Assembly: GCA_934621385.1 (NCBI GenBank)
Contig: CAKTUI010000003.1
Location: 17,998-81,997 of the forward strand
Reading direction: 5' to 3'
Source of the DNA: an uncultured Kiritimatiellota bacterium
Lineage (GTDB): Bacteria > Verrucomicrobiota > Kiritimatiellia > RFP12 > UBA1067
DNA: 64,000 nt
Shown: positions 5,964 to 36,829 of the stretch, one piece after another
Numbering within the stretch: the first letter of the stretch is position 1
Layout: the number at the start of each line of letters is the position of its first letter
Made by a program: the position numbers and the translations under genes
The notes under the pieces: generated by a model
The model's database searches: none
What the model was told of the DNA's origin: nothing
What the model saw: the letters and a program-made list of their open reading frames with translations, nothing else

Positions 5964-6052
5964 TGGCCTTTACCCGTTTTTCATGACCGAAAATCCAGCC
6001 CTCCGGCAACACCTCTCGCACCCGCGAAAAGCTACACCCTCAAGCAACGATG

Positions 6053-6061
6053 ATTATATCA
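6053..6061 (-). promoter_or_regulatory. Extended -10 promoter (TGATATAAT) for the GH27 gene
   Basis: Reverse complement of attatatca, ~90 nt upstream of the ATG at 5963. Same TGnTATAAT form recurs upstream of many genes in this window. Confidence 0.5.
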
Positions 6062-6105
6062 CACTGCTGACGCGAAAAGCAATCGGAAATTTAGATACGC
6101 ATCTC

Positions 6106-6934
6106 GGGCACCACGGTGATTTAGTTCACCCTCGTTCTCGCTGGTGTTTGCCGCGGTCACCCTCCCGGGGTTAACAGATTCCCTGAAATGTGAGATACTA
6201 CACTCGTCCCATTGTGGACGGGAAGGAACGAATCTGCCAATGCTGACGATGAGACAGGTGACCAAGGCGACGGAACTGAAGCGCTTCAAGGAACTTGAGG
6301 GCGAGTACCACTACATGGGCGAGACCCATTCCGGCGGAGACACGATGCGCCTCGTCTTCGAGGAGGACGGGAAGTGGGTCGCGCTGATGGTGTGGGGCTC
6401 TGCGTGCTACCACATCAAGCCGCGCGACGCCTATGTCGGCTGGGCGAACTCGGTCAAGGCGATCGCGCGGTTCGCGAAAAGGCTGACGATGGCCCAGCGC
6501 AGGGCCCTGTGCATGCCCCGCGCGAAGAGCAAGGCCGGCGTCGTCGCGAAGCACGAGTACAAGGTGCCGTGCCACGTGACGCTCCACAACTTCCTCCGCG
6601 CGCTCGACCTCGACGACTTCGGCGAGAAGCTGTCCGGGTGGATGGCCTCGCAGGGCGACGGGACGCTCCCGCGCCAGCTCGTGCTCGACGGCAAGTCCGT
6701 CAAGGAGGTGATGGGGGTCGTGTCCGTCGTCAACGCGGAGACGGGCGCACCCGTCGCGGTGACCGAAGCGAGCTTTCCGCCAGGTGCCGTCATCGCCAGG
6801 AAAATCGAAAAAGAGGAGTCGGGCGCACGATTGAAGATGCGATGAATGCGCCTGAAGCGCCAACTGAAGCGCCACGTCCGCATTCCGTGAGGATGGACGG
6901 GCATGAGTCAGCGCCAAACTAAATCACCGTGCCC
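6106..6934 (+). mobile_element. Internally deleted IS remnant (ISAs1-like with DUF4338-like N-terminus) bounded by inverted repeats
   Basis: Left end GGGCACCACGGTGATTTAGTT (6106-6126) versus reverse complement of the right end GGGCACGGTGATTTAGTT (6917-6934). At ~830 bp it is too short for a full transposase. Confidence 0.6.
6240..6845 (+). pseudogene. Truncated DUF4338-like / ISAs1-type transposase N-terminal region
   Basis: EGEYHYMGETHSGG..WVALMVWGSACYHIKPRDAYVGW resembles DUF4338. VPCHVTLHNFLRALDLDDFGEKLSGWM..LVLDGKSV resembles the ISAs1 N-terminal region. No DDE catalytic domain follows. Confidence 0.5.
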
Positions 6935-6981
6935 AAAAAATTGATGCCGCTGAAAAAAGTCCGTTCCGGGTGCGCGGATTA

Positions 6982-6990
6982 TGGTATAAT
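6982..6990 (+). promoter_or_regulatory. Extended -10 promoter (TGGTATAAT) with no ORF downstream
   Basis: Exact match to the window-wide TGGTATAAT motif. It faces the structured non-coding stretch 6997-7310. Confidence 0.5.
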
Positions 6991-6996
6991 AGGGGC

Positions 6997-7310
6997 GTTC
7001 TTTTGAGAGTGGGCGAGCGGGAACCCGTCCGCCGGCGGAGCAACGGTTTCGCCGCGGAGGGAGGGGCGAATGCGCACCACCGACAGGACGGGGCGTTGAC
7101 GGACGGAGGAAGGGAAAGCACGCGGGTGCTTTCCGAAAACCACGCGGGTGCTTTCCCTTCGTATTCGGTTCAACAGACCTTGGGCAAGCAAAGGCGAGAC
7201 CTTGGTCAATCAAAGGCCGGCCACCCCTGTCAGGCAGGGAAACCACCTCGCTTAGGCGAGGAAAACCCTGCGCTCAGGCAAGAAACCCCCGTGTCTCGGG
7301 CAGGTCGGCA
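6997..7310 (+). ncRNA. Candidate structured sRNA (mutually exclusive hairpins plus six short stem-loops)
   Basis: No credible ORF on either strand. Hairpin GGAAAGCAC-GCGG-GTGCTTTCC lies at 7113-7134, with a duplicated 3' arm at 7148-7157. Six 19-24-nt units at 7177-7308 each begin ACC and fold into a 4-6-bp GC stem-loop. Transcript ends are unknown. Confidence 0.3.
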
Positions 7311-7324
7311 TCAGACTTTCCCTT

Positions 7325-7650
7325 TCACTTCTGGCACTTGGGACAATACCAGCTCGTGCGGCCGCCGAGCGTCACTTTGGCAACGGCGGTTCCGCAGACG
7401 GGACACTGCTTCTGCGCGTAGATTTTCAGCTTCTGGACGAACTTGCCCTCCGAGCCGTCCACGTGATGCCGCAAAGAGCATCTCGCCCGTGAAATCCTTC
7501 GAAAGCGGCTCGACGCCGATGCCCGCAAGTCCCTCCGGCCAGCCGAAACGCCGACCGCTCCGTCGAAGACAAGCCCCGCCTCCATGAAGACGTCCAACAC
7601 CCCCGCGTGATGACGCCGCAGATTGAAAAGCTGCTGAACCTTTCAACGCC
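7325..7650 (-). pseudogene. mutM: Formamidopyrimidine-DNA glycosylase remnant (frameshifts and internal deletions)
   Basis: The C-terminal zinc finger is intact (KQCPVCGTAVAKVTLGGRTSWYCPKCQK). Upstream pieces (RRFGW..GIGVEPLSKDFTGE) sit in another frame and the middle of the protein is missing. Confidence 0.7.
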
Positions 7651-8367
7651 TGCCGTGATGATCCACTGCCCCGACGGAACGATACCGCGCCACGGGACTC
7701 TCTACGCCCTTCTCAAGAACGACGACCGCGCCGTGGGGAAGACTGCCGCGGAGCACTTTCTCTCCAAGTCGAAGTTCAGGACATACGCCTTCATACCGAC
7801 GCCTTCGCCGACGAACTGGTCCGACGAGCGGCTTGCGGGCTTTGCAGAGAGGCTCGCGCAAAAAGGGGCGGCGCCGGTCGTCTGGCGTCAGGAGCGCGGA
7901 CCGCTCGAGGACTTCCTCGCGTCCCTGCCAAAGCCAGCCGCGGTCCTTGGCGCGACGGATCTCGAGGCAATCAACGTTCTGACCGCCTGCCGCAAGCTCA
8001 GGATAGACATCCCCTCGCGCGTCGCAGTGCTTGGAGTCGACGACGACGAGATGAGGCGCTGTCGTTCGTCCGGAGACATTTCGCCGAGGGCATCGGCGTA
8101 GACGACGTGGTCAAGCACCTGGGCGTCTCGCACTCGCTCGTGCGCGAGCGCTTCCGCAACGTGCACGGCAAGTCACTGCGCGACGTCATACTCGACATGC
8201 GCGTAAAGGCGGCGATGTCGCTCCTTTCGCGGACAAAGGCATCCGTGCGCGAAATCGCGCTAAAGGTCGGCTTCTCTTCAGACGCCCATTTCGTCCGCTA
8301 CTTCAGGAAAAAGACGGGAACGACTCCTGCCGCCTACCGAAATTCAACAGCACTACATCGTTTCTGA
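7607..8367 (+). pseudogene. XylR-like AraC-family regulator remnant (N-terminally truncated, internal deletion ~8050-8070)
   Basis: ORF 7607-8101 carries a periplasmic-binding-like sensor part (..PKPAAVLGATDLEAINVL..VAVLGVDDDE). ORF 8107-8367 carries the AraC HTH (VREIALKVGFSSDAHFVRYFRKKTG). The junction jumps frame (VDDDE / ALSFVRRHF). Confidence 0.65.
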
Positions 8368-8604
8368 ACCAAAAGGGTCACACTTGATTGCCACACCCGA
8401 TTGACACAGTGTCCGTTCGTATTCACCACATCCGAGCGGAGAGAATGGACAGTGAGCGAGACAAAGCAGGTGGTCACGCCTGAAACCGATTGCTCGCGGT
8501 TCTCTATGCAGCACTCATGGCAGCATTGCCCGCAACTCCGCAATCTCCTTCGGGTCGCGAGTAACGGAGCTTACAGCCTCAGGATTCATCGCCACGCTAA
8601 ATTA

Positions 8605-8634
8605 CCACAGTCATGTTGAAGCCGATGACTGTGG
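8605..8634. repeat. Perfect 10-bp inverted repeat (CCACAGTCAT-n10-ATGACTGTGG)
   Basis: Read directly from the sequence. It lies in non-coding DNA between the xylR remnant and the tRNA-like gene. Confidence 0.6.
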
Positions 8635-8808
8635 CCATTCCTCAACATCGCCGCGACAAATCTGCCGCGCTTGGTGTTGAGCAGTGCCACGCTTTTTGAC
8701 GCGAAACGTTCTGCTTTTCCCTCGCTTCAGCTTCATTTTGTGTCCCCCAATGTGTCCCCCACCACTTGAGGTGTATAGGGCTGTATGAAGGTGTATGCCG
8801 ACGAGAGA

Positions 8809-8856
8809 GAAAAAGTGCGTTTCACCCCCGTTTTTATTGAGTAAAGCGCACTTTTA
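8809..8856 (-). terminator. Putative intrinsic terminator of the tRNA-like gene
   Basis: Minus-strand RNA AAAAGUGCGCUUUAC..GUGAAACGCACUUUU forms a ~15-bp stem with one mismatch, followed by UCUCUCUC. Confidence 0.45.
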
Positions 8857-8859
8857 AAG

Positions 8860-8921
8860 TGGTGGAGGTTGAAAGATTCCAAAGCCCGACCCACTTGCGC
8901 CGAGCGGAGAAACCAACCTCC
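8860..8921 (-). ncRNA. 62-nt tRNA-like RNA gene or truncated tRNA pseudogene with encoded ACCA end
   Basis: GGAGGUUG...CAACCUCC-ACCA gives an 8-bp acceptor-type stem. The T-loop-like UUGGAAU is degenerate, and the element is ~14 nt shorter than a tRNA. It is flanked by its own promoter and hairpin. Confidence 0.5.
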
Positions 8922-8934
8922 AAAAACGCCTTAT

Positions 8935-8943
8935 ATTATACCA
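8935..8943 (-). promoter_or_regulatory. Extended -10 promoter (TGGTATAAT) driving the tRNA-like gene
   Basis: Reverse complement of attatacca. The predicted start is ~7 nt upstream of the tRNA-like 5' end. Confidence 0.5.
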
Positions 8944-9105
8944 TATTTCGGGTGTGACGAGGTTCTGAATATGTGATAAATGCTGGACCATGAAACTTCT
9001 CCCCGAAAAAGTTGGTGGAGAAAATATTTCTATTTTTTCTGATTCAACTGATGCCATCGAAGCCCCCTATAGTGTCCAGGCACTAATACGTATAGCGATT
9101 AGACT

Positions 9106-9867
9106 TCATTGATGTAGCACTTCTAATAAGACGGAGAATGCCTTGCCAACATCAAGCGCCTTAATTGTATGCTCTTCAAGGTTAATTCCGCAAATCATCG
9201 CGACAAGATTACCTTGCTCGTCTAATAATGGGGCGCCGCTACATCCCTCAAAATTCGTTATATCCTCAAGCCCGTCTATATCCCGAATACGAAAGTATCT
9301 ATAAAAGCCATCATCGTAAGTATGATCAATATGCGTATATGCTGCCGGGGTCTGATAAAAGTAAAACCGATTAGAATCGTCATAGGTTTCGTTATCGTCG
9401 GCATATTGAGGTTTTATCATTCCGCAGAATGAACATTCTCCATCAACTGGGCACTCAATATGTGGGACGGGAAATGTTTTTAATGGAACTATAACTTCAT
9501 TCCCCCCCTGTACCTTTAGATGTCTGATTGGTTTACAGTCCGTGGGCAAATCAAACAGGGCTCCATCCACAATTGTCCTATCATCAAGGCACCAAACAAT
9601 TTCGCCTGAAGGAACATTATCATTTAGCGCACATTGATTAGCAGACAAAAGGCATGCGCCTCCTCCCAACGGCAAGCATTTCGTACCATACGAAGGATCG
9701 TAGTCAAGTTGTAACGACAGCCCCTCACCAAAGGCATGACCTACAGTAAAAAGGTAATTCCTACATTCGTGGCTCAATATAATGCCTGACGCAGATGCTA
9801 TTGGCATATGGCCCTCACTCAGTTTTACCAACTGAGCAGTGGAGGCAAACAAAGTATCAATATCCAT
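9106..9867 (-). CDS. Cytoplasmic trypsin-like (S1-type) serine protease
   Basis: 253 aa in low-GC DNA with an ordered triad: TVGH(44)AF, D(101)GALF, GCS(210)GAPLL. No signal peptide. Confidence 0.65.
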   Translation of the reverse strand: MDIDTLFASTAQLVKLSEGHMPIASASGIILSHECRNYLFTVGHAFGEGLSLQLDYDPSYGTKCLPLGGGACLLSANQCALNDNVPSGEIVWCLDDRTIVDGALFDLPTDCKPIRHLKVQGGNEVIVPLKTFPVPHIECPVDGECSFCGMIKPQYADDNETYDDSNRFYFYQTPAAYTHIDHTYDDGFYRYFRIRDIDGLEDITNFEGCSGAPLLDEQGNLVAMICGINLEEHTIKALDVGKAFSVLLEVLHQ

Positions 9868-25199: not shown

Positions 25200-25751
25200 T
25201 TATGCAGCAGCCCTCTTGAGATACTTGTTCGTCTCGAGGAGAACGTCCTCAGACTTGCTTGTGAGCGCACCCTTGTCGTCGAGCAACGCAGTGTCAAGGA
25301 TCGCTTTGACAGCCTGCGCCGTCGAAAGAAGAGCGGCCACACGCTTCTTCGATTCGGGCCTGTACTTGGCGAAGTCACAGCCCTCCATGTCGATGATGCT
25401 CTCGAAACTGTAGAGCTGCGGGAACATCAGCGCCTCAAGCTTGATCAGAACCTGCGTGAACAGGTCGGCGCGGCGCGTGATCGCATTGCAGGCCGTCACC
25501 ATGACATTGACCTCCGCCTCCGCCTCCTTGACCTTCGCGATCTCGCCGCCCAGGGCCTTCAGATCGTCGAAGCTGCCGCCCTCGGGGACCGTGACCTGCG
25601 GATAGGGCTTGCCCTTGAACTTCATCGTCACGTACTTCATGAACAGCAGCGAGAGGATGTAGTTCTTGTACTGCGACGGGTCCATGCCGCCGCGCAGCTT
25701 GTCGCAGCTCGCGTCCAGGGATGAATAGATTTCGTTCTTCTTGATAGCCAT
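25200..25751 (-). CDS. Stand-alone HsdM_N-like protein (N-terminal ~75 aa only) fused to unrelated sequence
   Basis: Start at ATG 25751. MAIKKNEIYSSLDASCDKLRGGMDPSQYKNYILSLLFMKYV matches the type I HsdM N-terminus. After ..DDLKALGG the similarity ends and there is no methyltransferase domain. Confidence 0.55.
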   Translation of the reverse strand: MAIKKNEIYSSLDASCDKLRGGMDPSQYKNYILSLLFMKYVTMKFKGKPYPQVTVPEGGSFDDLKALGGEIAKVKEAEAEVNVMVTACNAITRRADLFTQVLIKLEALMFPQLYSFESIIDMEGCDFAKYRPESKKRVAALLSTAQAVKAILDTALLDDKGALTSKSEDVLLETNKYLKRAAA

Positions 25752-25771
25752 GTTCGTGTTCCTCTCGTAAA

Positions 25772-27559
25772 TCAGTTTTTGGACCCCGCAGTTTCGGCGA
25801 AGCAGTCGGCCGCGTTCGTCGCCAAGATCGCCCCCAGCTCTTCCTTTGCCTGCCCGAGCCGCGTCCGAAGCTCGACCACGCGGCGAACCGCCTCGCGGCA
25901 CTTGTCTCCAATTTCCTTCTGCCGATCAAGCGGGAGAACAGGAATCGGCAGCATTTCCAAGCTCTTGTATTGCAGCGTCTTCACCATGTTCCCGACAGCC
26001 GAGTTCCGAAGATACCGCTGGGCGTACTCGTTCTCAAGGCAGGACTTGATGAAGTAGGGATCAGCCCGCGTCGGATCGACCGTCAAGACCAGAACGTTCC
26101 CGCCGGGCAGAAGCGTCTGCCCAGACGCCAATTCAGCAACGGCCACCTTGAAGACCGAGTTGTTCGCCATGACCCGCGTAATCAGCACATCACCATCATG
26201 AACACAATAGGACGCGTACTTTTCCGGCACTTCGGAAAGATTCATCAGCACGGCGTCTACCACGCCGTCATTGATGTTTCCCGACGAGACATACCGAATG
26301 CCCGTATCAGCATTCGACACCAAGTCATCAAGTTCCTTTGACGGGATCGCCGCACCGCGCTTCCCGACGCTGATCAACGCGGACAATTGAACACCCTCGC
26401 GGAGTGCCATCGGATCGGCAAAATGCCGCAAGACCGTCAGATTACACGTCTCGTCCAAGAGCGACTTCTTTTCGACCACCGCGCAGATCTCGTCATCGAG
26501 CGTCGTCCCCGTTCCGCTCTCCATGCTCCGCATGATTCTTGCAACGCCGCCGGTCGTGAGGGCATTGTTGCTGCGCCCCTTCTCGCAAAGGTTCCCCGCA
26601 CGGATCATCTTCACGGACTCATTGCCCTCGCTAAACACAACCATGTAGGTCGAAATGGAAGTGTTCGTGAAGAGCTTCGCCGGAAGCTCAATGATCGCCT
26701 CGACAAGATTGCGCTGGACGAAGTACCGGCGGAACGGTTCGGCCTGCTGCGTGTGCATGGCCGACGGCGGCAGAATCACCACGGCCCGTCCACCCGGCTT
26801 CATCGCGGCGACTGCGCGAGCGGCAAACAGCCAATCGCTGGCGGCCGACGGCGGGATTTCCGGGAAGTCAGGGAATGCCCTGCGGATGAACTCGCGGACG
26901 TTGTCCTGTTCCGGGAGACCGCGCACCGCAAACGGTGGCTGCGAAAAGACCTTGTCAAACTTGTCCTTCTCGTATGACTGCCCGAAGAAGTCATCCCAGA
27001 CGATCTGCACATCCGCATTGCAGCCATGCATGCTGATCTCTGCCAACGCCGCCAATTCGAGTTTCTTCTCATACCCGACGACGTTGCTCTTCTCACTCCC
27101 GGCTTTTACCTTGGACGCCGCCAGACGAATGAAGTCCCCCGTTCCACATCCGAGGTCCGCCACCGAATCGCCCTCGCCGATCCTCAAGACATCAGAGACC
27201 AGCTCCACGACGGGCAGAGACGAGCCCGATGTCTTGGCAAGTTCAAAACGCTCCCCGTTGACCGCCCTTGCGAAATAACCGCCGAACGAATCAACCGGGA
27301 ATGCTGTCAGGAGAGGAAGGTACTCGCCCCAGTGGTCGCCCAGTCGATTGCATATAAAGTCCGACAACTTCTCCGAAACGTGGCCAGCTGCGAGAAGCGC
27401 TTTCAGATCCGTCACCCCGCTGTAACGGGCAGCCAAGCAAAGAACATACGCTCCGCACACAACGGATGTATACGGTACTGCGGTATGCGCCCTCTCGACC
27501 ACCATCAGCGTGGTCTCGATCTTGTTCTGTATCTCACTCAGTTCTATCACAAAAATCAC
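25772..27559 (-). CDS. N6-adenine DNA methyltransferase fused to one HsdS-type target-recognition domain (no R subunit in window)
   Basis: 595 aa with a GTG start. Motif I is VADLGCGTGDF; motif IV is the non-canonical FSQPPFA. The C-terminal TRD plus conserved helix (GDVLITRV..LPIPVLPLDRQKEIG) is typical of HsdS halves. Confidence 0.75.
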   Translation of the reverse strand: MIFVIELSEIQNKIETTLMVVERAHTAVPYTSVVCGAYVLCLAARYSGVTDLKALLAAGHVSEKLSDFICNRLGDHWGEYLPLLTAFPVDSFGGYFARAVNGERFELAKTSGSSLPVVELVSDVLRIGEGDSVADLGCGTGDFIRLAASKVKAGSEKSNVVGYEKKLELAALAEISMHGCNADVQIVWDDFFGQSYEKDKFDKVFSQPPFAVRGLPEQDNVREFIRRAFPDFPEIPPSAASDWLFAARAVAAMKPGGRAVVILPPSAMHTQQAEPFRRYFVQRNLVEAIIELPAKLFTNTSISTYMVVFSEGNESVKMIRAGNLCEKGRSNNALTTGGVARIMRSMESGTGTTLDDEICAVVEKKSLLDETCNLTVLRHFADPMALREGVQLSALISVGKRGAAIPSKELDDLVSNADTGIRYVSSGNINDGVVDAVLMNLSEVPEKYASYCVHDGDVLITRVMANNSVFKVAVAELASGQTLLPGGNVLVLTVDPTRADPYFIKSCLENEYAQRYLRNSAVGNMVKTLQYKSLEMLPIPVLPLDRQKEIGDKCREAVRRVVELRTRLGQAKEELGAILATNAADCFAETAGSKN

Positions 27560-27578
27560 CTCTGTCGTTGTGGCGCAT

Positions 27579-27587
27579 AGTATATCA
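27579..27587 (-). promoter_or_regulatory. Extended -10 promoter (TGATATACT) at the head of the long minus-strand gene train
   Basis: Reverse complement of agtatatca, ~20 nt upstream of the GTG start at 27559. Confidence 0.45.
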
Positions 27588-27876
27588 CATTTTGCATTGC
27601 CGTGTCAATGGCTATGACTTGCAGATTGTAAAGCAATATAAATCATACATTTCAGTTCGTCGCATCTCAAAGGACAAACTTTTTCGGGACTGAACGCTTT
27701 TGGGCCTCGAAAAACGTGAGCGGAGGCCGGGGCTGCGACTTCAAATCGCTCCTTCGCCGTCACTTGAAAAGGCAAAGAAAGAGCGTTTTATGATAAAGAA
27801 TTGTGAAATAGACGGTTGCTATTCGCCCGACATTACGGCATCATGTCAACCGTTGAATCAAACTGGCGAAAAGGAC

Positions 27877-28323
27877 ATGAAAGTAGGCGAACAGCTCAAG
27901 CAGGAACTGGCCGAGTTGCAGGAACTTGACCCTGAAACGCTGCGTCGGAAATACTGTGAGCTAACGGGAGTGAATGCCGCCGTCTTTGGGGCGCGGTTCA
28001 TGCAAAGCCGTTGCGCTTACAGCATTCAGCAACGCACCTTGGGCGGATTAACCCCCGCTGAACTTGAAACCCTCGCCTACATTGCCAATCACGATCCGAA
28101 GACGAACAAGGAACTTCGAGACGCACCGCGCTCGGCAAAGGACAAACGCGGTGTCACGTACAGGCGCGAATATCACGGCAAGCTTTATGAAATGAAGTCG
28201 CTCGGAAACGGACGATACGAATACGAGTCGAAGATCTACACATCTCCGACAGCCGTCGTCCGCGCCATCACGGGCAAGAGCCACTACAACGGCGTCGTAT
28301 GGTGGGGCCTCAACCGGGGGTAA
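27877..28323 (+). CDS. DUF2924-family protein (recombinase-associated)
   Basis: Start at ATG 27877. LRRKYCELTG..YSIQQRTLGGL..REYHGKLYEM..YESKIYTSPTAVVRAITGKSHYNGVVWWGL is the DUF2924 pattern usually found upstream of large serine recombinases. Confidence 0.65.
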   Translation: MKVGEQLKQELAELQELDPETLRRKYCELTGVNAAVFGARFMQSRCAYSIQQRTLGGLTPAELETLAYIANHDPKTNKELRDAPRSAKDKRGVTYRREYHGKLYEMKSLGNGRYEYESKIYTSPTAVVRAITGKSHYNGVVWWGLNRG

Positions 28324-28342
28324 AACGAGAAAGGAGTTCAAA

Positions 28343-30079
28343 ATGAACCACGGGAAAACGATCCGAGTGGCGATTTACACGCGTAAGTCCGTCGAGGATT
28401 CAGAGGAAAAGCAGTTCAACTCCATCGATGCCCAGCGCCAGATGTGCGAGAGTTTCATCGCCGCCAAGGCGGCAGAGGGATGGATTGCCCTTCCCGAACG
28501 ATTCGATGACTACGGCTACAGCGGCGGCAATCTCGAACGCCCCGCCTACCAGCGGCTCATGGCGCAATGCGAACAGGGACTCGTCGACAAGATCATCGTC
28601 TTCCGAATCGACCGCATGACGCGCAGCACCAAGGACTTCTGCGAGTTCGACGAGAAGATGAAGAAGCTCGGAGTAGGATTCACCTCCGTCTCCGAGCCAT
28701 TTGTCGACACCTCCTCGCCGATGGGCGAGCTGGTCGTGAACCTTCTCGTCTCGTTCGGGCAATGGGAACGCAAGACGATTCAAGAGCGCATTCAAAAGCA
28801 CTTCAAGACCGCTCTCGACCAAGGCTTCTTTGTAGGCGGCATACCGCCCTACGGCTACAAGGTCGAGAACCAGACACTCATCCCTGACCCGAAGACGGCG
28901 CAGAACGTCCCACACATTTTCGAGTTGTTTGTCCAGCTCCATTCAGCGAAGAAGGTGGCGGCCAAACTCGCCGAGGAAGGCATCGAACGCTTCCCCGGAC
29001 GCGCCTGGACGACGCAGTCGGTCTACAATTGCCTTGGCAACGTCCGCTATGTCGGCGATGCCAACAGCCACGGCAAGATCGTCAAAGGCAAGCAACAGGC
29101 GCTCATCACACGCGAACTTTGGGAGCGTGTCCGCAACCTCGTCAACGCCGCCAAGGGCAGCCGCGAGAAGAAAGAGATGACCCCGGAGGCGGCCGTTTAT
29201 CAAGGTCTCATCTTCTGCGGCCATTGCCAGCATCCGATGTCCTACCGCTGGTCGAAGAAAGATACGCTCGGCGTTCGGAAATATCCCTACTTCATCTGCC
29301 AGCAAGATGCCCGCAAGGGTGTTTCAGAATGTCCGATCCGCCATGTCAGCGCAACAACCGTGCAGGAAGCAATCGAACAGGAACTCGAATCAATCATGAT
29401 GGCTTCTACAACGATGCTCGTCGCGGCGGCAAACGTCACCCCCTTCACGCCCGAGCAGATCGTCACGGGCTTTCGTCGCCACGGCTTCTGGCAACAGCTG
29501 TCGACGAACGACAGGAAGGCAATCTACCGTCTCTTCATCCGTTCCGTCACGGTGTTTGAATCGACACTCGACATCCGCGTCAAAATGCCGTGTGACGATG
29601 CGCGAAACGAACTTGTGAAGACTCTCTGCATCCCTGCGACGCCAACCAGCGAATTCGACACGCGCATCGATGCCGACGGATGCCTCTTCATGCGCATCCC
29701 GGTCGCCTTCCGAACGGTGTCCGGGCGCAAGAAGATCGTCCGCACGGACGGCGGCTCGGTCTCGCAGAGACCAACCCAGCACGAGATCAACAACACCCTT
29801 CTGCAGGGAGCGGTTCTCAAGGCAATTGCACGGGCATTCGCATGGTTGCGGCTTATCGACGAAGGCAAGGCGTCCTCCGTCCACGAACTGGCGGATCTCG
29901 TCGAGGAAGACCGCCACTACGTGCGCTATACGCTGCGCCTCGCGTTTCTTTCGCCCCGGATTATTCGCGCTGCGATGACCGGCGACCTGCCAAACGGTTT
30001 TTCGCTGGAGAAAGTCCGCAAGGTCGAAACCGACGATTGGGCAGAGCAGGAGCGGATTCTTGGATTTCCATCAACCTGA
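28343..30079 (+). CDS. Large serine recombinase (integrase)
   Basis: 578 aa. The resolvase-type N-domain has a catalytic Ser in VAIYTRKSVEDSE..SIDAQ. A recombinase domain and a Cys-containing zinc-ribbon region (FCGHCQHPM..FICQQD) follow. Confidence 0.85.
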   Translation: MNHGKTIRVAIYTRKSVEDSEEKQFNSIDAQRQMCESFIAAKAAEGWIALPERFDDYGYSGGNLERPAYQRLMAQCEQGLVDKIIVFRIDRMTRSTKDFCEFDEKMKKLGVGFTSVSEPFVDTSSPMGELVVNLLVSFGQWERKTIQERIQKHFKTALDQGFFVGGIPPYGYKVENQTLIPDPKTAQNVPHIFELFVQLHSAKKVAAKLAEEGIERFPGRAWTTQSVYNCLGNVRYVGDANSHGKIVKGKQQALITRELWERVRNLVNAAKGSREKKEMTPEAAVYQGLIFCGHCQHPMSYRWSKKDTLGVRKYPYFICQQDARKGVSECPIRHVSATTVQEAIEQELESIMMASTTMLVAAANVTPFTPEQIVTGFRRHGFWQQLSTNDRKAIYRLFIRSVTVFESTLDIRVKMPCDDARNELVKTLCIPATPTSEFDTRIDADGCLFMRIPVAFRTVSGRKKIVRTDGGSVSQRPTQHEINNTLLQGAVLKAIARAFAWLRLIDEGKASSVHELADLVEEDRHYVRYTLRLAFLSPRIIRAAMTGDLPNGFSLEKVRKVETDDWAEQERILGFPST

Positions 30080-30094
30080 CAAAGGAGAACTACG

Positions 30095-30412
30095 ATGAAG
30101 ATACAACGGAACCCCGAACGCATGATCGTCAACTGCGCGGCCCCAGTCGAGGTGGTCGCCAAGGTCAAAACAGCCATAGCCAGACGCATGGTCCCGACGT
30201 GGGTCAGACAAGGCCACAGGACGCACAACAAGATGCGCCCAATGGGGATTTCGACATTCTTCGTCGAGGCCGTAGCCAAGGCCGTTGAAGGCATCGTTCC
30301 CTCTCCAGAGAACGTCGAATGGGCAGAACGGATGATTGCCAAGGGTCGGGAAAATCACGCAATCGCGACGCGGGAACGGTGGGAGAAGCGCAGAGCCAAG
30401 CACAAGAAGTGA
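30095..30412 (+). CDS. Hypothetical basic 105-aa protein
   Basis: The ORF follows the recombinase by 15 nt and ends before a strong terminator. Confidence 0.4.
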   Translation: MKIQRNPERMIVNCAAPVEVVAKVKTAIARRMVPTWVRQGHRTHNKMRPMGISTFFVEAVAKAVEGIVPSPENVEWAERMIAKGRENHAIATRERWEKRRAKHKK

Positions 30413-30427
30413 CGGGCTTCGCAACGC

Positions 30428-30466
30428 AAAGCGGGACGTGTGCAACGACGCACACGCCCCGCTTTT
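30428..30466 (+). terminator. Intrinsic terminator
   Basis: GCGGGACGTGTGC-loop-GCACACGCCCCGC followed by TTTTCATTT. Confidence 0.7.
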
Positions 30467-30650
30467 CATTTCTCCATTGCAAATTCCGCATCTCCAAAAC
30501 GCCACTCGGGGGAGAAATTCGGGAGGGGGAAACGGAGAAAACGATCATACCCCCCCTTTCTCCCGTCCCCCTCTGGAGAAATCACCCCCTCCCGCTTCCA
30601 ACTCCAAACACCCCCGTAAATTGGGCATTTTCCGCGCACTCCCCAACCCC

Positions 30651-30682
30651 AACAGAAAAGGGAGAAGCGCACTTCTCCCTTT
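30651..30682 (-). terminator. Intrinsic terminator downstream of tRNA-Val
   Basis: Minus-strand AAAGGGAGAAG-UGCG-CUUCUCCCUUU followed by UCUGUU. Confidence 0.6.
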
Positions 30683-30695
30683 CGCTGTCTGTTAG

Positions 30696-30772
30696 TGGTG
30701 GACGATGAGGGACTCGAACCCCCGACCTTGACCGTGTAAAGGTCCTGCTCTAACCAACTGAGCTAATCGTCC
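30696..30772 (-). tRNA. tRNA-Val (anticodon TAC), CCA encoded
   Basis: 77-nt cloverleaf read by hand: GGACGAT/ATCGTCC acceptor, GCTC..GAGC D arm, anticodon loop TTTACAC, T arm GGGGG-TTCGAGT-CCCTC. Confidence 0.9.
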
Positions 30773-31488
30773 TTGCCTGTGGAGTGGGAATTATAGCAAA
30801 TATCCGGAACGGCGGAAAGGAGGTGACGCGTATATTCACTCTTCGGGTGCGCAAAAACCTCCGCCGCATCACCGACATCGACAAAAAGCCCATGTTCCAT
30901 CACACAAATGCGATCACAGACATTCTTCACAACGGCCAGGTCGTGCGCAATGAGAAGAATGGATAAGCCAAGTTCCCGACGCAAGTCGCGCAGCAAATTC
31001 AAGACGCGGGCCTGAACCGAGACATCCAGTGCGCTGACCGGTTCATCGGCAATCAGGACTCGCGGCTCACAGGCGAGTGCCCGTGCAACGGAAATGCGCT
31101 GGCACTGCCCCCCCGACATCTCACGCGGATACTGATCCAGGACAGCGCGCGAAAGTCCCACCAGTTCGAGCAACTGGCTCGGCTCCGAAAACTTCGTCGA
31201 ATGCCGAATCTTCAGGACCTCCGAAAGCGTCTGCCGCACGGTCATCCGCGGATTGAGAGAGCCAACTGCATCCTGAAAGACCATCTGCACCGACACATCC
31301 GCCCGACGGATTTCACCCGACGAAGGGCGCTCAATGCCGATGAGCGTTTTCGCAATGGTCGACTTGCCCGAGCCGGACTCTCCGACAATTCCCAGAATCT
31401 CCCCTTCTCGGAGCGTGAAACTCACGCCCTTGACGGCTTCGTATGAGCCGTATCGAACATGCAAATCTCGAACGTCAAAAATGTCCAT
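30763..31488 (-). CDS. ABC transporter ATP-binding protein (oligopeptide/dipeptide DppF/OppF-like), no partner genes adjacent
   Basis: Walker A GESGSGKST, signature MSGGQCQR, Walker B VLIADEP. The last 10 nt overlap the 5' end of tRNA-Val. Confidence 0.8.
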   Translation of the reverse strand: MDIFDVRDLHVRYGSYEAVKGVSFTLREGEILGIVGESGSGKSTIAKTLIGIERPSSGEIRRADVSVQMVFQDAVGSLNPRMTVRQTLSEVLKIRHSTKFSEPSQLLELVGLSRAVLDQYPREMSGGQCQRISVARALACEPRVLIADEPVSALDVSVQARVLNLLRDLRRELGLSILLIAHDLAVVKNVCDRICVMEHGLFVDVGDAAEVFAHPKSEYTRHLLSAVPDICYNSHSTGKDD

Positions 31489-31494
31489 GTGATT

Positions 31495-32856
31495 TTACTT
31501 CAGCAGGGCCTTGCACTTTGACGAGAGCGTACGCTCCCGATCCCGAATGTTCTTTGCGAAATCAGCAAAACGCTTCTGATAGACGGAATGATCGATGCCG
31601 CCCGTCGTTCCCTCGTGCGTCTTCGCATTGACGGCAATGTCAGGATCCTCATCCCCGAGACGCTCAAGGTGGTCGCGAACCTCATGATAGGCATCGCGCC
31701 AAGGCGTACCCCCAGAGACCATTCGCAGGGCGACGTCAGTGGCGAAGACACCTGGCGTAAACGCCGCACGACATCTTGCCGCATCAACCGAAAGCCCCGC
31801 GACAACTTTTGCAAGGATGCGCAGTGTCGTACGGGTAATGTCGAGGCCCTTCATGTACAGCCACTTGCAGTCCTGAAGGTCACGATTGTAACCGCCCGGC
31901 ATCGCATGGAGCAGTGAGAGCGCGGCGGTCTGAAGGCCAAGGACCTGAGCCGCCTTCGAACGCATCAACTCAAGGACATCCGGATTGAACTTCTGCGGCA
32001 TAATCGATGAACCCGTGCAATACTCACGCGGCAGTTTGAAATAGGCAAACTCCGGCATGGAGAAAAGAATCATATCCTCCGCAAGGCGCGAAAGAACCGC
32101 CATGAGCTGTGCCAAAGCCGACAGGAGTGCCGCCTCGCACTCGCCGCGTGCCATCGACGCACCAAAACAGTTGTGAATCGTGCGGGAGAAACCAAGCAAG
32201 TCCGTTGTCCGCTGACGATTCAGCGGCAAGGGAACGCCATAACCCGCGGCACTTCCAAGCGGATTGAGGTCTGCGAGGCGATAGGCCGCTTCAAGATTCT
32301 CCAGCTGATCGGCAATCATTTCTGCATGACCTGTCGCCCACATCTCAACAGTCGAAGGCATCGCCGGCTGAAGATGCGTCCGTCCAACAAGGGGAATGCG
32401 GCCCGCTTTCTTGCCCAGTCGGCAAAGCGTCTCAACCAATGCGAGGACTTCGCCCTCCGTCTTCAGAATCTCGTCCTTCATGTGTAGGCGCACGTCAACG
32501 GCGACCTGGTCATTGCGTGAGCGCCCCGTATGAATCTTCTTTCCAAGGTCGCCCAGCCGCTCCGTCAGCATCCGTTCGACCGCCATGTGCACATCCTGGT
32601 CGTCCTCGCGGATGACGAACTTACCGTCCTGCGCGAGCGCGACAATCCGACCAAGCTCCTTGCGGACTTTCGCCGCCTCGGCCTTTGTCACAACAGGACG
32701 CTTCAGCTTCATTTCGGAAAGCATCGTCACGTGCGCAGCCGTGCCCATGCAGTCCCAGACGGCCAGGCGAAGGTCAAGGACGGGATCATCACCCACCGTA
32801 TAATCCAACACATCCGGATCAATCCGATTGTCTGTTATCGTCCTTTTCGTCTTCAT
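31495..32856 (-). CDS. argH: Argininosuccinate lyase
   Basis: 453 aa with fumarate-lyase signature GSSIMPQKFNPD and GRSRNDQVAVD. Confidence 0.9.
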   Translation of the reverse strand: MKTKRTITDNRIDPDVLDYTVGDDPVLDLRLAVWDCMGTAAHVTMLSEMKLKRPVVTKAEAAKVRKELGRIVALAQDGKFVIREDDQDVHMAVERMLTERLGDLGKKIHTGRSRNDQVAVDVRLHMKDEILKTEGEVLALVETLCRLGKKAGRIPLVGRTHLQPAMPSTVEMWATGHAEMIADQLENLEAAYRLADLNPLGSAAGYGVPLPLNRQRTTDLLGFSRTIHNCFGASMARGECEAALLSALAQLMAVLSRLAEDMILFSMPEFAYFKLPREYCTGSSIMPQKFNPDVLELMRSKAAQVLGLQTAALSLLHAMPGGYNRDLQDCKWLYMKGLDITRTTLRILAKVVAGLSVDAARCRAAFTPGVFATDVALRMVSGGTPWRDAYHEVRDHLERLGDEDPDIAVNAKTHEGTTGGIDHSVYQKRFADFAKNIRDRERTLSSKCKALLK

Positions 32857-33761
32857 TTTCTCATCAGTCCTTTCAGTTTTTCATCCGCCTCGGACAAGAG
32901 ACGCGCCAATTCAATTTCGGTTTTCTTAAATCGTGCAAGTTCCATCAGGAAAGACGAATAGGCCTCTGCAACGGATGCCAACTCCTCGCCGCGTCCACCT
33001 CCGAAGATTGCGACCTGCCGTGACTTGACGAACGCGGCAAGCCGCACGCTCGGATCGGTCTTCGCATGGAGAATGGCCTCGGCAAACGTGCAGGAGTCGT
33101 ACTTTCCACAAAAAGGCAACGCATAGGCCATGGGATAAAGGCGAAGCCGCGAGGCAAACGTGAGGACATCGTCCTGTGCCGCGACCCCCGGCTTGAGAAC
33201 CTTTCGCTGGAGTTGGAGATAGTCCTCGTCACTCTTCCCCGGCGCATAACTGCCGCGCTCGCGCCAGTCCGCAAGTTCCGCCCGTTCCTCCGCAACGCGC
33301 AAGTCAGGGTTCGCCGCCACCAGTGCCGCATACGCGGTCGCATCGTCAATCACCTCATTCTTCACCGCGAGGTAAAAAGCCCGAATAACCGACAACTGAA
33401 AGGAGCGAAGATCCGCCGCCCCCGGGGCTGGCAAGTAAATCCGTGCATACCGGTCCCCACTCGAACGCGTGGACGACCTCATCACGACATTCGTCACATT
33501 CGTCCGAATGTCGCCGATATGGATGACGATTCCTGGCTCCGAAAATCGCGGCAATTTCAGGGACTGCGCCGATGCCAGCGAACGGCAGACATCGGCGGCC
33601 GCACCTGCCACAGAACCCATGAACTCGCGCCGCATATCAGCCGGACAATCCCCATAGACCCGAACCAACCCATCACATTTCGTCATGGGAGCGGCACGCA
33701 GGCGATCAACGAGTTCCGCTCGCGTCAGTGCAAGAAGCAAGATGGATGCCAAGACCGTCAT
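32853..33761 (-). CDS. Hypothetical protein with N-terminal hydrophobic segment
   Basis: Start taken at ATG 33761 (TGATG overlap with the mraY-like stop); N-terminus MTVLASILLLALTRA. No recognised motif. Confidence 0.45.
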   Translation of the reverse strand: MTVLASILLLALTRAELVDRLRAAPMTKCDGLVRVYGDCPADMRREFMGSVAGAAADVCRSLASAQSLKLPRFSEPGIVIHIGDIRTNVTNVVMRSSTRSSGDRYARIYLPAPGAADLRSFQLSVIRAFYLAVKNEVIDDATAYAALVAANPDLRVAEERAELADWRERGSYAPGKSDEDYLQLQRKVLKPGVAAQDDVLTFASRLRLYPMAYALPFCGKYDSCTFAEAILHAKTDPSVRLAAFVKSRQVAIFGGGRGEELASVAEAYSSFLMELARFKKTEIELARLLSEADEKLKGLMRK

Positions 33762-34840
33762 CAACGCACCTTCACCAAAATGAGGAGGAGAAACGGCATG
33801 ACGACCAGTTGAAGAAGCGTAAAGCGCATCAGCACCTGGGCATTCGACCAGCCGAGATTCTTCTTGCAATGATCATGCAACGGAAAGCGAATGCGCCGAA
33901 TCGCCGCGTCTTCACCAATGTCAAAACCCACTTTCTTCGCAAGTCGCAAGAGGACGAGCTTACCGAGTCCGCCCCCGCCATTGACGAGGACGACGGGCGA
34001 GAAGGCGAGAATCAGAAATGGGTTGCCCGTCACCAGAACGGCTGTCCCGACCAAAATCCCCAGGAAACGACTGCCCGCATCACCCATCAAGATCTTCGAC
34101 GGCTCTGCATTGAACCACAGGTATCCACCGACACCACCGGCAACCGTCATCACGAGAATCGCCCAACGGGCCGCCTCGGGATCGCACGGCAACAGGAAAT
34201 AATGAGCCACGGGACGATAGCCGACAATCACATAGAGCATCACCGCCAGCAGTACCAACGTAATCAGGGTCAATGTGCCCGCAAGACCATCCACGCCGTC
34301 CGAGCAATTCGTCGCATTCATCGTAAACCACAGCATGAACCCGGCACACGGAACATAAAGCCAGAGCGGAACAACCCACACCCCCTTCACAAACGGCAAC
34401 CAGACGAGCGTCGAATGTCCACGCGCAATGCAATAGGCAATGCCAAGCGCGACAACGGCATCCAGCAACCCCTTTTTCAGTTCCCCCCAGGGAACAGCAG
34501 CCCGATCGTCAAGGTAGCCGAAGAGCATCGCCGCATAGAGCAAGACAACAGCCAGCAGATCCCAGAAAGCCAGTGGCGTGAAGAGAACGATGACCGGCAA
34601 CGCGATGAGCGACAGGAGAACGCCCGCGCCAGTCGGCTTTCCGGCGGACTTCATGCCGCCTAAGTCCTTGCACAGGGCCTTGCCGCGATCCCGTGGCAAC
34701 CGATTCCAGAGGCGCGGCAAGAACATGAATGTCAACAGCGCGGCCGTCAAGGCACCGCCCGCCAGCAAAAGCGCATGAGACTGGAGAAGTCGGAATGGCC
34801 CCCAATAGGGCGTCAAATAAAGCGAAAGATAGTAAAGCAT
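33761..34840 (-). CDS. mraY: MraY-type phospho-sugar transferase (GT4 polyprenyl-phosphate family)
   Basis: MLYYLS start at 34840 (TGATG overlap with the truA stop). Motifs: NATNCSDGVDGLAG, MGDAGSRFLG, RFPLHDHC. Multi-TM. Confidence 0.6.
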   Translation of the reverse strand: MLYYLSLYLTPYWGPFRLLQSHALLLAGGALTAALLTFMFLPRLWNRLPRDRGKALCKDLGGMKSAGKPTGAGVLLSLIALPVIVLFTPLAFWDLLAVVLLYAAMLFGYLDDRAAVPWGELKKGLLDAVVALGIAYCIARGHSTLVWLPFVKGVWVVPLWLYVPCAGFMLWFTMNATNCSDGVDGLAGTLTLITLVLLAVMLYVIVGYRPVAHYFLLPCDPEAARWAILVMTVAGGVGGYLWFNAEPSKILMGDAGSRFLGILVGTAVLVTGNPFLILAFSPVVLVNGGGGLGKLVLLRLAKKVGFDIGEDAAIRRIRFPLHDHCKKNLGWSNAQVLMRFTLLQLVVMPFLLLILVKVR

Positions 34841-35592
34841 CAGTAGAAAACCTTCCAAAGAAAAAGTCCACGGCCAGGAGCCGTCTCAACACGCGCCGTA
34901 CGCGGCGCTTTCGCCTCCAGCAATTCCTTGACGGCAATGGGCTTTTCATTCCCCTTGCCAACGGACAACAGAAAGCCAACCATTGACCGAACCTGCTTGT
35001 AGAGAAAACCATCCCCACGGACAATGAACGTGTAGCGAGGCCCAACCCGCTTAATGACAAACGAGAAGATCGTGCGCTCCGTCGTCGCAAGCGGACGATT
35101 CGGATTCGCGGCAAAAGAGACGAAATCATGCTTGCCGACGAAATAGGACGCCGCCTCCTGCATAGCCGCCAAATCAAGCGTGCGATGGGTGAACGCCCAG
35201 TAGGGGGCCAGATGAGGCGGCAGAATGTCCGCCTGATAGAGTTGGTAGCGATACTCCTTGCCCTTCGCCGACAACTGGGCATTAAAATCGTCCTTGACGC
35301 GTTTAGCCCGCAGGATGCGAATCGCCATTGGCAACTGAGCATTCAACGCCCGAACGAGATTGGCCGGAGGTATTGCATGCGTCAGGCAGAAATCCGCCAC
35401 GTAGCCCTTCGCGTGCACCCCCGCATCCGTCCGGGACGAGCCGCGCACACGCACGGGCGCACCTTCGATGCGACCAACCGCCTCCTCGACGACTTGCTGA
35501 ATGCCGACGGCATTTTCCTGGTATTGCCACCCGGAATAGGCCGTCCCATCGTAGGCGATAACAACGCAATACTTATATTTCGTCTCGTTCAC
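34840..35592 (-). CDS. truA: tRNA pseudouridine synthase A
   Basis: GTG start at 35592 overlaps the upstream stop (GTGA). YDGTAYSGWQYQ and catalytic RTDAGVHA are present. Confidence 0.85.
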   Translation of the reverse strand: MNETKYKYCVVIAYDGTAYSGWQYQENAVGIQQVVEEAVGRIEGAPVRVRGSSRTDAGVHAKGYVADFCLTHAIPPANLVRALNAQLPMAIRILRAKRVKDDFNAQLSAKGKEYRYQLYQADILPPHLAPYWAFTHRTLDLAAMQEAASYFVGKHDFVSFAANPNRPLATTERTIFSFVIKRVGPRYTFIVRGDGFLYKQVRSMVGFLLSVGKGNEKPIAVKELLEAKAPRTARVETAPGRGLFLWKVFY

Positions 35593-36569
35593 GCGAACAG
35601 TTTCTTGAGTTCGCCGGCGCGGGACCGGCTCACAACGAGGACGGCATCCTTTGTCGAAACGACCACCAGGTCTTTCACCCCCAGCAGGGCAATCTTCGGT
35701 CCCTTGGCGATGCAAATGTTGTCCGCCGATTCAACGGTCTTCACGTCTCCGCTCACCACATTCCCCTCGGCATCATGTGGATAGTAACGCTCAAACGCCC
35801 CATAGCCGCCAACATCATCCCATCCAAAGTCGCCGGGGACAACGGCCACCGTCTCATACTTCTCCATCACGGCATAGTCGAACGAAATGCGGGGTAGCTC
35901 CTCGTACAAACGCCGCAATTTTGCCGTGGTATAGCGCGTTTCGGCAAGGCTCGACAGGGCCGGCGCATGCGCGGCAAATGCAGCCCGAAAAGTCGATGCC
36001 CGGGCAATGAACATCCCCGCATTCCACAGAAAGCCCTTCTCCAAGTAGCACTTCGCCTTCTCGGCATCAGGCTTCTCGACAAACTTGCCCGTTGCCGGGT
36101 CGACATAGCCAAAACCCGTGGCAGGATAGGTTGGGCGGATGCCAATCGTCACAATCGCACGACTTTTTCGAGCGATGCCAATCGCCTTCCGAACCGCCGC
36201 CCGAAATTGCGCCGGCCGCGCAACCAGCTGGTCACTTGAAAAGACCCCGATGACGGGGTCGCCTTCACCAGCGGAAACGCCAACGCCCAGCGCAACGGCG
36301 GCCCCCGTGTCGCGGCGCATCGGCTCGCCCACAACATTCTCCGAGGGGATTTCAGGCAGTTCACGCTTCGTCGCCCGAGTGAGGGCGCGCCCCGTGATGA
36401 CATGGACATTCTCGGGGGCGCACAAATCACCAAGACGATCAAAACTCAAGCGAATAAGGCTCTTTTCACCAAAAACGCTCAAGAATTGCTTCGGCCTCGC
36501 CGCCGTTGAGAGAGGCCAGAAGCGCTCGCCGCTTCCTCCCGCCAATATCACCGCCTGAAAGTTCTTCAT
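35589..36569 (-). CDS. Mannose-1-phosphate guanylyltransferase-like nucleotidyltransferase
   Basis: MKNFQAVILAGGSGERFWPLS..RPKQF. The start at 36569 coincides with the predicted transcription start, so the mRNA is probably leaderless. Confidence 0.75.
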   Translation of the reverse strand: MKNFQAVILAGGSGERFWPLSTAARPKQFLSVFGEKSLIRLSFDRLGDLCAPENVHVITGRALTRATKRELPEIPSENVVGEPMRRDTGAAVALGVGVSAGEGDPVIGVFSSDQLVARPAQFRAAVRKAIGIARKSRAIVTIGIRPTYPATGFGYVDPATGKFVEKPDAEKAKCYLEKGFLWNAGMFIARASTFRAAFAAHAPALSSLAETRYTTAKLRRLYEELPRISFDYAVMEKYETVAVVPGDFGWDDVGGYGAFERYYPHDAEGNVVSGDVKTVESADNICIAKGPKIALLGVKDLVVVSTKDAVLVVSRSRAGELKKLFA

Positions 36570-36575
36570 GCCCAT

Positions 36576-36584
36576 ATTATACCA
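36576..36584 (-). promoter_or_regulatory. Extended -10 promoter (TGGTATAAT), leaderless configuration
   Basis: Reverse complement of attatacca. The hexamer ends 7 nt before the ATG at 36569. Confidence 0.5.
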
Positions 36585-36829
36585 TAGATTGCGCGAAGGT
36601 CACCGTTCCTTGTTAAAGTCGGAAATTGTAAAATCGAATGAGTCACCCAAGCGAAGTGAAAAGTGCCGCGCCTGCGGCCATCTACGATCGCATTGAGACG
36701 ATGAGCGCATTCGCCCACGCCCTCATAAGCGAACGATTCATCCGCTGAACGCACGATTTCAACGCATAAAAGGCTTCTCGACGCATACCAACAGGTATGG
36801 CCCAGACGCGGCGAAGGCAACCGCCACGT

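Follow-up and report, generated by a model that had tools for sequence, protein, structure and literature searches.

The window analysed here, a stretch of 64,000 nucleotides from the genome of an uncultured Kiritimatiellota bacterium, carries an intact tRNA-Val(TAC) gene, an integrated island with a recombinase operon and, at the other end of the island, a small promoter-bearing hairpin RNA gene whose 3′ half resembles the end of the tRNA. The features are given below in window coordinates.

8588–8860, minus strand: host flank (273 nt), the orthologue of the sequence that lies behind tRNA-Val at the empty site, and 96% identical to G018:C181:10274-10546, which adjoins tRNA-Val there.
8805–8859, minus strand: native trailer and intrinsic terminator of tRNA-Val (B′ arm), now behind the mimic; the same sequence follows the intact tRNA-Val in G018 and G003.
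8866–8858, minus strand: proposed crossover within TCCACCA(CT), placed by the attL/attP breakpoints at TCCACCA.
8860–8891, minus strand: tRNA-Val-like 3′ half of the RNA, the proposed island-side (P) arm of the attachment site, placed by identity to the tRNA and by homology breakpoints.
8860–8921, minus strand: 62-nt hairpin RNA (the mimic), GGAGGTTGG...CAACCTCCACCA (also given as GGAGGTTGG...TCAACCTCCACCA), ending in CCACCA; delimited by folds, family alignment and covariation.
Within 8860–8921, minus strand: closing helix GGAGGUUGG/UCAACCUCC and apical hairpin CUCGGCGC-AAGU-GGGUCGGG of the RNA.
8935–8943, minus strand: extended -10 promoter TGGTATAAT, a motif enriched genome-wide.
8944–9048, minus strand: conserved non-coding upstream block of the module, with a second CTCCACCA core and then a GGGAGAAG-like box, conserved together with the promoter and the RNA.
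8860–30695, minus strand: integrated island of about 21.8 kb, bounded by attL and attR and recognised by composition and ORFs.
27700–30412, plus strand: recombinase operon, with DUF2924 (27700–28323), a large serine recombinase (LSR; 28343–30079) and a 105-aa ORF (30095–30412), convergent with tRNA-Val.
30650–30695, minus strand: island-derived P′ arm, a 12-nt spacer followed by GAAAGGGAGAAG-TGCG-CTTCTCCC-TTTT, now the terminator of tRNA-Val.
30696–30772, minus strand: host tRNA-Val(TAC), intact, called by ARAGORN and Rfam; it forms attL.

The motif TGGTATAAT was found to be the canonical promoter of this genome, with 199 copies observed against 6.3 expected, and the start codons of leaderless genes peak 6–8 nt past it. 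Because leaderless ATGs sit at that distance, the primary 5′ end of the RNA gene is predicted at about 8931–8927, which would give a leader of 6–10 nt. An earlier sequence-only reading of this DNA had placed the element at 8943–8935 and about 7 nt upstream of the RNA; the element is there, and the spacing from the end of the -10 hexamer to the GGAGG of the RNA was measured as 13 nt. In a genome-internal repeat search, the promoter part alone recurred, being the standard promoter, and the RNA was not found to be a repeat element. Across the whole genome (G000), this promoter dominates (in the window, for example, at 6982–6990 as well as at 8935–8943), leaderless mRNAs are common, judged by the start codon peak, and many copies of the promoter have upstream of them a block of about 25 nt, cgcgcaagcccccgagcaggcggttt, that recurs in the genome.

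The first 8 nt of the RNA pair perfectly with the 8 nt preceding ACCA, as the same reading had claimed, and this helix extends to 9–10 bp via a G-U and a U-A pair. The T-loop-like UUGGAAU was also confirmed (TTGGAAT in the DNA). The minimum-energy fold is a single rod-like hairpin without a cloverleaf, with a z-score of -4.5 and with none of 200 shuffles equally stable. ARAGORN called only tRNA-Val and tRNA-Pro in the window, and Rfam models did not match the RNA in 8500–9300, whether at the gathering score or with the threshold relaxed to E ≤ 10; this 800-nt stretch gave four weak matches (E values of 0.21–7.9), all of them unrelated and far below the gathering scores. A tRNA identity was rejected on the basis of both negative searches, the rod-like fold and the lack of any real D, anticodon or T arm, which agrees with the earlier description of these arms as degenerate or absent. 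A tmRNA, including a lone tRNA-like domain, was rejected as well, with no tmRNA call in the window and the tmRNA of the genome located on another contig, and so was a Y RNA or YrlA-type RNA, since the Rfam search assigned the RNA to no family at E ≤ 10. An IS110-type bridge RNA was likewise rejected, the recombinase being an LSR and the RNA having no internal loops complementary to the flank above chance.

The last 32 nt of the RNA are identical to the 3′ end of tRNA-Val(TAC) at 24 of 32 positions, a recount that corrects the earlier figure of 23, and this is the best score among the 41 tRNAs of the genome (median 17). Similarly, for five variants from subfamilies A, B and D, tRNA-Val(TAC) was the best match among the tRNAs of this genome over the last 32 nt, with 21–26 identities compared with medians of 16–18; the variant L084 reached 26/32, with the last 17 nt of tRNA-Val exact. 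Judged by these scores, the mimicry is specific to tRNA-Val.

The mimic belongs to a conserved module of about 190 bp, which spans approximately -138 to +51 relative to the core and stops exactly at the terminal CCACCA, and the sequences flanking this module on both sides differ between genomes. The upstream block, promoter and RNA are conserved jointly, with identities of 94–97% within subfamily A and about 73% between A and B, and the -10 box is retained in nearly all copies. About 40 copies were found in gut and rumen Kiritimatiellae, including a second one in this genome. A search pattern derived from the apical hairpin matched 8 of 117 genus genomes, the second copy of this genome on contig C16 included, and a covariance model matched 13 of 117, one match being a true tRNA-Val, which leaves about 12 of 117. 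The pattern also matched Kiritimatiellae MAGs and rumen and gut metagenome contigs; 6 of the 45 public matches were chance hits in unrelated bacteria, where the rest of the module is absent. With regard to a phage origin, no match was found in viral contigs. Some copies lie at non-tRNA sites (G116 and the C16 copy of this genome), and the downstream flank is neither a tRNA trailer nor a P′ box in about 28 of 41 copies. The upstream cargo varies by copy and comprises RHS-like giants with small downstream genes or immunity genes, a PIN/XRE pair, DUF5131 and others, so that the RNA is not tied to particular conflict genes; the earlier proposal that it is retained beside such genes found no support here. 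The second island of the family in G000 has a subfamily-B mimic RNA at C16:7600-7672 (minus strand), with a giant protein of 2301 aa encoded upstream of it; an FtsK-like gene lies at a distance of 32 kb, and a fragment of a 41%-identical serine recombinase is at a contig end; C16:39196-39957 and C45:124-903 are the stretches cited for this island. In the window, the upstream conserved block at 9000–9030 (minus strand) reads TTTTCTCCACCAACTTTTTCGGGGAGAAG, and from its sequence this block resembles a decayed older tRNA-end/P′ junction.

The island in the window carries a methyltransferase, an FtsK-like motor, an RHS toxin with immunity genes and a low-GC module. Pfam recognised Resolvase, Recombinase and Zn_ribbon_recom domains in the recombinase and also found the DUF2924 domain. 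The LSR gene lies about 620 nt from tRNA-Val, and closer homologues of it adjoin tRNA-Val(TAC) in G099, G076, G115 and G122. The mimic was found downstream of tRNA-Val, in the same orientation, at 21.8 kb in the window, 15.5 kb in G122 and 2.1 kb in G012. In the sister species G099, the side with tRNA-Val, recombinase and methyltransferase (G099:C3:21707-32767) is 97% identical to window positions 25552–36613; the cargo diverges past 25552, and no mimic RNA was found in that assembly.

The empty site was observed in G018 and G003, two species of the same genus, in which CTTTAAAAGCGCG..., then the terminator and the further flank known from the window, come immediately after an intact tRNA-Val(TAC), with no second tRNA. 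This comparison with island-free relatives, which had been proposed as a check, also settles the nature of the hairpin that follows the RNA after a 4-nt gap. The hairpin described before as one of about 15 bp with a U-rich tail is present at about 8855–8810, as a bulged 16-bp hairpin with a T-run, but it is the terminator of tRNA-Val and not a part of the unit; the unit is therefore not self-contained, given that relatives have the hairpin and the 273 nt at 8860–8588 in their native place behind tRNA-Val. Other tRNA genes of the genus (tRNA-Ala, tRNA-Val and others; L013, L014, L016 and L010) have a similar trailer and terminator, CTTNAAAAGTGCG...CCCAATAAA..., and matched the hairpin of the window because tRNA trailers and terminators are alike. 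Homology to G018 ends at 8588, and the region from 6000 to 8588 contains only gene fragments (an Fpg zinc-finger C-terminus, a partial LacI-type binding domain and a transposase-like piece); by its content it looks like another decayed variable region.

Reciprocal junctions were found in several genomes and contigs. The P′ box follows tRNA-Val in G076, G099 and G122, and it was found at exactly 12 nt from the ACCA of the mimic in eight other contigs. In a first pair, tRNA-Val of G076:C17 is joined to AGGGTTGTTTCCGAAAGGG... (AGGGTTGTTTCCGAAAGGGAGAAGTCCGCTTCTCCC...) and the mimic of L053 to the same sequence, with homology that begins at TCCACCA, continues as far as the contig does and amounts to 87% over an aligned length of 500 nt. 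In a second pair, tRNA-Val of G122 is joined to ATCCACGATACCGAAAGGG... (ATCCACGATACCGAAAGGGAGAAGTTGG...), which in L073 follows a subfamily-B mimic. Additionally, L050 has the convergent operon of 105-aa ORF, LSR and DUF2924 about 75 nt past the mimic, with an LSR 72% identical to that of the window; read from gene order, this arrangement is a circular permutation of the island in the window. The joints between RNA and P′ may represent excised circles or tandem arrays, and in either case the 3′ end of the RNA would be the exchange point. The identity common to both junctions of the window is TCCACCACT (9 nt), and the G076 type shares only TCCACCA; such short shared identity places the crossover in the last bases of the tRNA. 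The locus thus has an element-encoded LSR by the target-side junction, an unoccupied target in relatives and reciprocal junctions, all of them expected of an LSR attachment site. An exact direct repeat of the tRNA 3′ segment was not found at the distal end, where only TCCACCACT is identical within the 24/32 match. Dyad symmetry around the proposed crossover was not convincing, with 10–12 of 26 positions at best, and the only symmetry left is a short CTTTC/GAAAG mirror at 11 and 12 nt.

At the level of sequence, these comparisons demonstrate that the element stems from the island and is conserved as a family, that an empty site and reciprocal junctions exist, and that the element is linked to the recombinase. 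The explanation that we prefer, with a probability of about 0.7, is that the element is attR, the distal junction of a 21.8-kb LSR island inserted in the end of tRNA-Val(TAC), and that the promoter and RNA form a mini-gene of the island whose 3′ half is the attachment arm, acting in cis as a dummy tRNA gene. According to this proposal, the large serine recombinase would insert the island into the last bases of tRNA-Val(TAC) and leave the tRNA intact. The promoter and the 62-nt RNA are island DNA, a conserved small gene whose 3′ half copies the T-arm and the 3′ strand of the acceptor of tRNA-Val, ends in CCACCA and would serve as the island-side arm. Strand exchange in TCCACCA(CT) would then swap the downstream parts of the two genes: tRNA-Val would gain the island spacer and terminator, which would shield the convergent recombinase operon, and the mimic would gain the native trailer and terminator of tRNA-Val. 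The canonical promoter would transcribe the mini-gene into a rod-like hairpin RNA with an ACCA tail, and this RNA may mature like a tRNA minihelix. Its main role would probably be exerted in cis, as a stand-in for the tRNA gene that preserves the layout of promoter, tRNA-like arm and terminator at the site. The view of the element as a promoter-bearing mini-gene derived from a tRNA is upheld by this account.

Selection at the level of the RNA was evaluated in a gapless alignment of 30 distinct sequences, in which the inner helix and the apical hairpin were scored. Pairing was found in 91% of the cells, compared with 36–60% when the partners were slid by 1–3 columns, and changes on both sides were observed at three pairs, 14:59 (A-U/G-C), 33:44 (G-U/U-A) and 17:56; the search pattern fixes part of the apical hairpin but none of the covarying positions. 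Different sequences form the closing helix anew in three registers, as GGAGGUUG/CAACCUCC in subfamily A, as the 14–15-bp GGUUUUUGAGGGAU/AUCUUUCAAAGACC in subfamily B and as GGUGGACA/UGUCCACC in subfamily D. RNAalifold gave a weak consensus for the whole family, and the helices were analysed per sequence because the register of the closing helix differs between subfamilies. G-U pairs are confined to the promoter-sense strand, the one predicted to be transcribed. The fold z-scores are negative in most family members; several subfamily-A copies exhibited mismatches in the closing helix and z-scores near 0, and structural selection is therefore not uniform. Helices kept by compensatory changes and register shifts suggest a transcribed, structured RNA. 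Conservation is also strong in the apical hairpin, and no explanation for this was found; more than 35 nt separate it from the crossover, a distance that puts it far beyond the footprint to be expected of a recombinase.

The hairpin RNA may also have a role in trans, for which the comparisons gave no support. There is a slim but real chance that it is a functional partner of the LSR system, with its 3′ half as the DNA arm, regulating or assisting integration into and excision from tRNA-Val, or else that it is a tRNA-acceptor mimic made by the island; should either be true, it would be, to our knowledge, the first structured RNA tied to the site choice or control of a serine integrase. Taken separately, it is unlikely that the RNA acts primarily as an acceptor-stem mimic, which CCA-adding or aminoacylating enzymes, RNase P or acceptor-targeting toxins would take as a substrate or be decoyed by, and that it is kept because the island or its host benefits from it in conflicts, with the overlap with the attachment site being secondary. 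Such a role would be consistent with the canonical promoter, with the position of the closing helix beside ACCA in most copies, with the subfamily-B helix, which begins at the predicted transcription start and has ACCA after it, and with the compensatory changes in an apical hairpin too distant from the crossover for recombinase binding to explain them. Nevertheless, the differing upstream cargo leaves no constant protein partner except on the recombinase side, the subfamily-D helix consumes CCACC by pairing so that no ACCA tail is left, the anticodon and D arms are absent, and an antisense search of the island found complementarity to the RNA no higher than with shuffles.

It is decidedly improbable that the RNA works together with the recombinase, by controlling directionality, titrating the enzyme or pairing the site with the tRNA gene, loosely like the IS110 bridge RNAs. 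Large serine recombinases are not known to use RNA, the 5′ strand of subfamily A is not complementary to tRNA-Val, and LSR islands that are 97–99% identical at the tRNA side (G099) have no mimic in the assembly. These observations are set against a 3′ half that is a recombination arm and always stands at the element end, the proximity of the RNA to the LSR operon in L050, and the 5′ strand of subfamily D, GGUGGAC, which is complementary to GUCCACC and hence also to the 3′ end of tRNA-Val.

That a host tRNA gene has decayed here, or that an old integration has left a neutral scar, is highly improbable. The sequence-only reading had offered a deleted tRNA gene marking an old integration site, of which the integration boundary has stood and the deleted host tRNA has not, the element being island-borne and present in about 40 copies. 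A scar would account for the tRNA-like 3′ half, for the location of the RNA at a GC-content boundary and for the promoterless remnants in G003:C49 and G015, but in empty-site relatives this position is occupied by the intact tRNA-Val itself, the module moves along with islands and elsewhere adjoins the island P′ or the LSR, and the promoter and helices are retained across subfamilies that are about 27% apart. The least credible alternative, a small protein gene of 37–67 aa (MVQ..., 8854–9057 in the window) running through the promoter and RNA, can point to a conserved ATG that a GGGGAG Shine-Dalgarno box precedes by 8 nt and to a frame that is open in most copies and uniformly 37 aa long in subfamilies B and D, but the differences at codon positions 1, 2 and 3 (2469, 3899 and 3219, respectively) make position 2 the most variable, the synonymous share of 17% is inside the range of the other two frames (8% and 23%), the roughly 40% amino acid identity between A and B (a manual count from translations) is the neutral expectation at about 73% DNA identity, the C16 copy has no start codon any more, and the C-terminus enters unrelated flank in subfamily A. 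The 62-nt RNA is not a tRNA, not a decayed host tRNA and not coding.

Genomic islands at the 3′ ends of tRNA and tmRNA genes, with a partial tRNA copy at the distal end, are a classical arrangement. Among the tycheposons of Prochlorococcus, 27 of 937 integrase-carrying elements have a large serine recombinase and not a tyrosine one (bioRxiv 10.1101/2020.12.28.424599). As in these elements and other tRNA-targeting islands, the island described here has an intact tRNA at one end and a sequence derived from a tRNA at the distal end, supplies the new downstream sequence of the tRNA and carries variable cargo rich in defence and toxin genes. Unlike them, it has an inexact distal copy, identical over 9 nt at the joint and at 24/32 overall, and this copy is a complete small gene with a canonical promoter, a pairing 5′ strand and a conserved apical hairpin. 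The attachment sites of large serine integrases are known from phiC31, Bxb1, A118 and SPbeta SprA. The island resembles these systems in the Resolvase, Recombinase and zinc-ribbon domains, in the short identity restricted to the crossover, in the recombinase gene by the element-side site and in the hybrid attL and attR; it differs from them in targeting the final bases of a tRNA gene, and in that the left arm of the element side resembles the left arm of the target over about 32 nt and is embedded in a predicted hairpin gene, with no dyad symmetry detected. tRNA minihelices and hairpin substrates of RNase P, such as the 4.5S RNA precursor, are known as well, and the mimic, on sequence alone, shares with them a coaxial helix of 9–17 bp followed by ACCA and, in subfamily A, a short 5′ leader, whereas some mimic subfamilies pair CCACC itself.

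In the literature, no paper was found that joins serine integrases with a tRNA-like attP or with a function of DUF2924, and no description was found of an element that has its own attachment site built into a promoter-driven gene for a tRNA-mimic hairpin. Serine integrases are valued in genome engineering, and the attachment sites that they use in nature tend to be short, to lie outside transcribed DNA and to differ from the target. With the site inside a promoter-driven tRNA-mimic gene, insertion would exchange two terminators while both transcription units stay intact. The arrangement also offers a ready-made candidate attP/attB pair for integrases of a new clade, found in gut Kiritimatiellae, would explain the build-up of toxin and defence cargo beside tRNA-Val in these bacteria, and raises the question of whether transcription or RNA structure at the attachment site matters to a serine recombinase.

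Arrays of the 8-nt repeat AACTTGNN, in both orientations, were observed directly downstream of the mimic in L047 (about 50–330 nt past the RNA), L080, L086, L087 and L056. Judging by their repeat pattern, these arrays look like iterons or a clt-type site for the FtsK-like motor of the islands.
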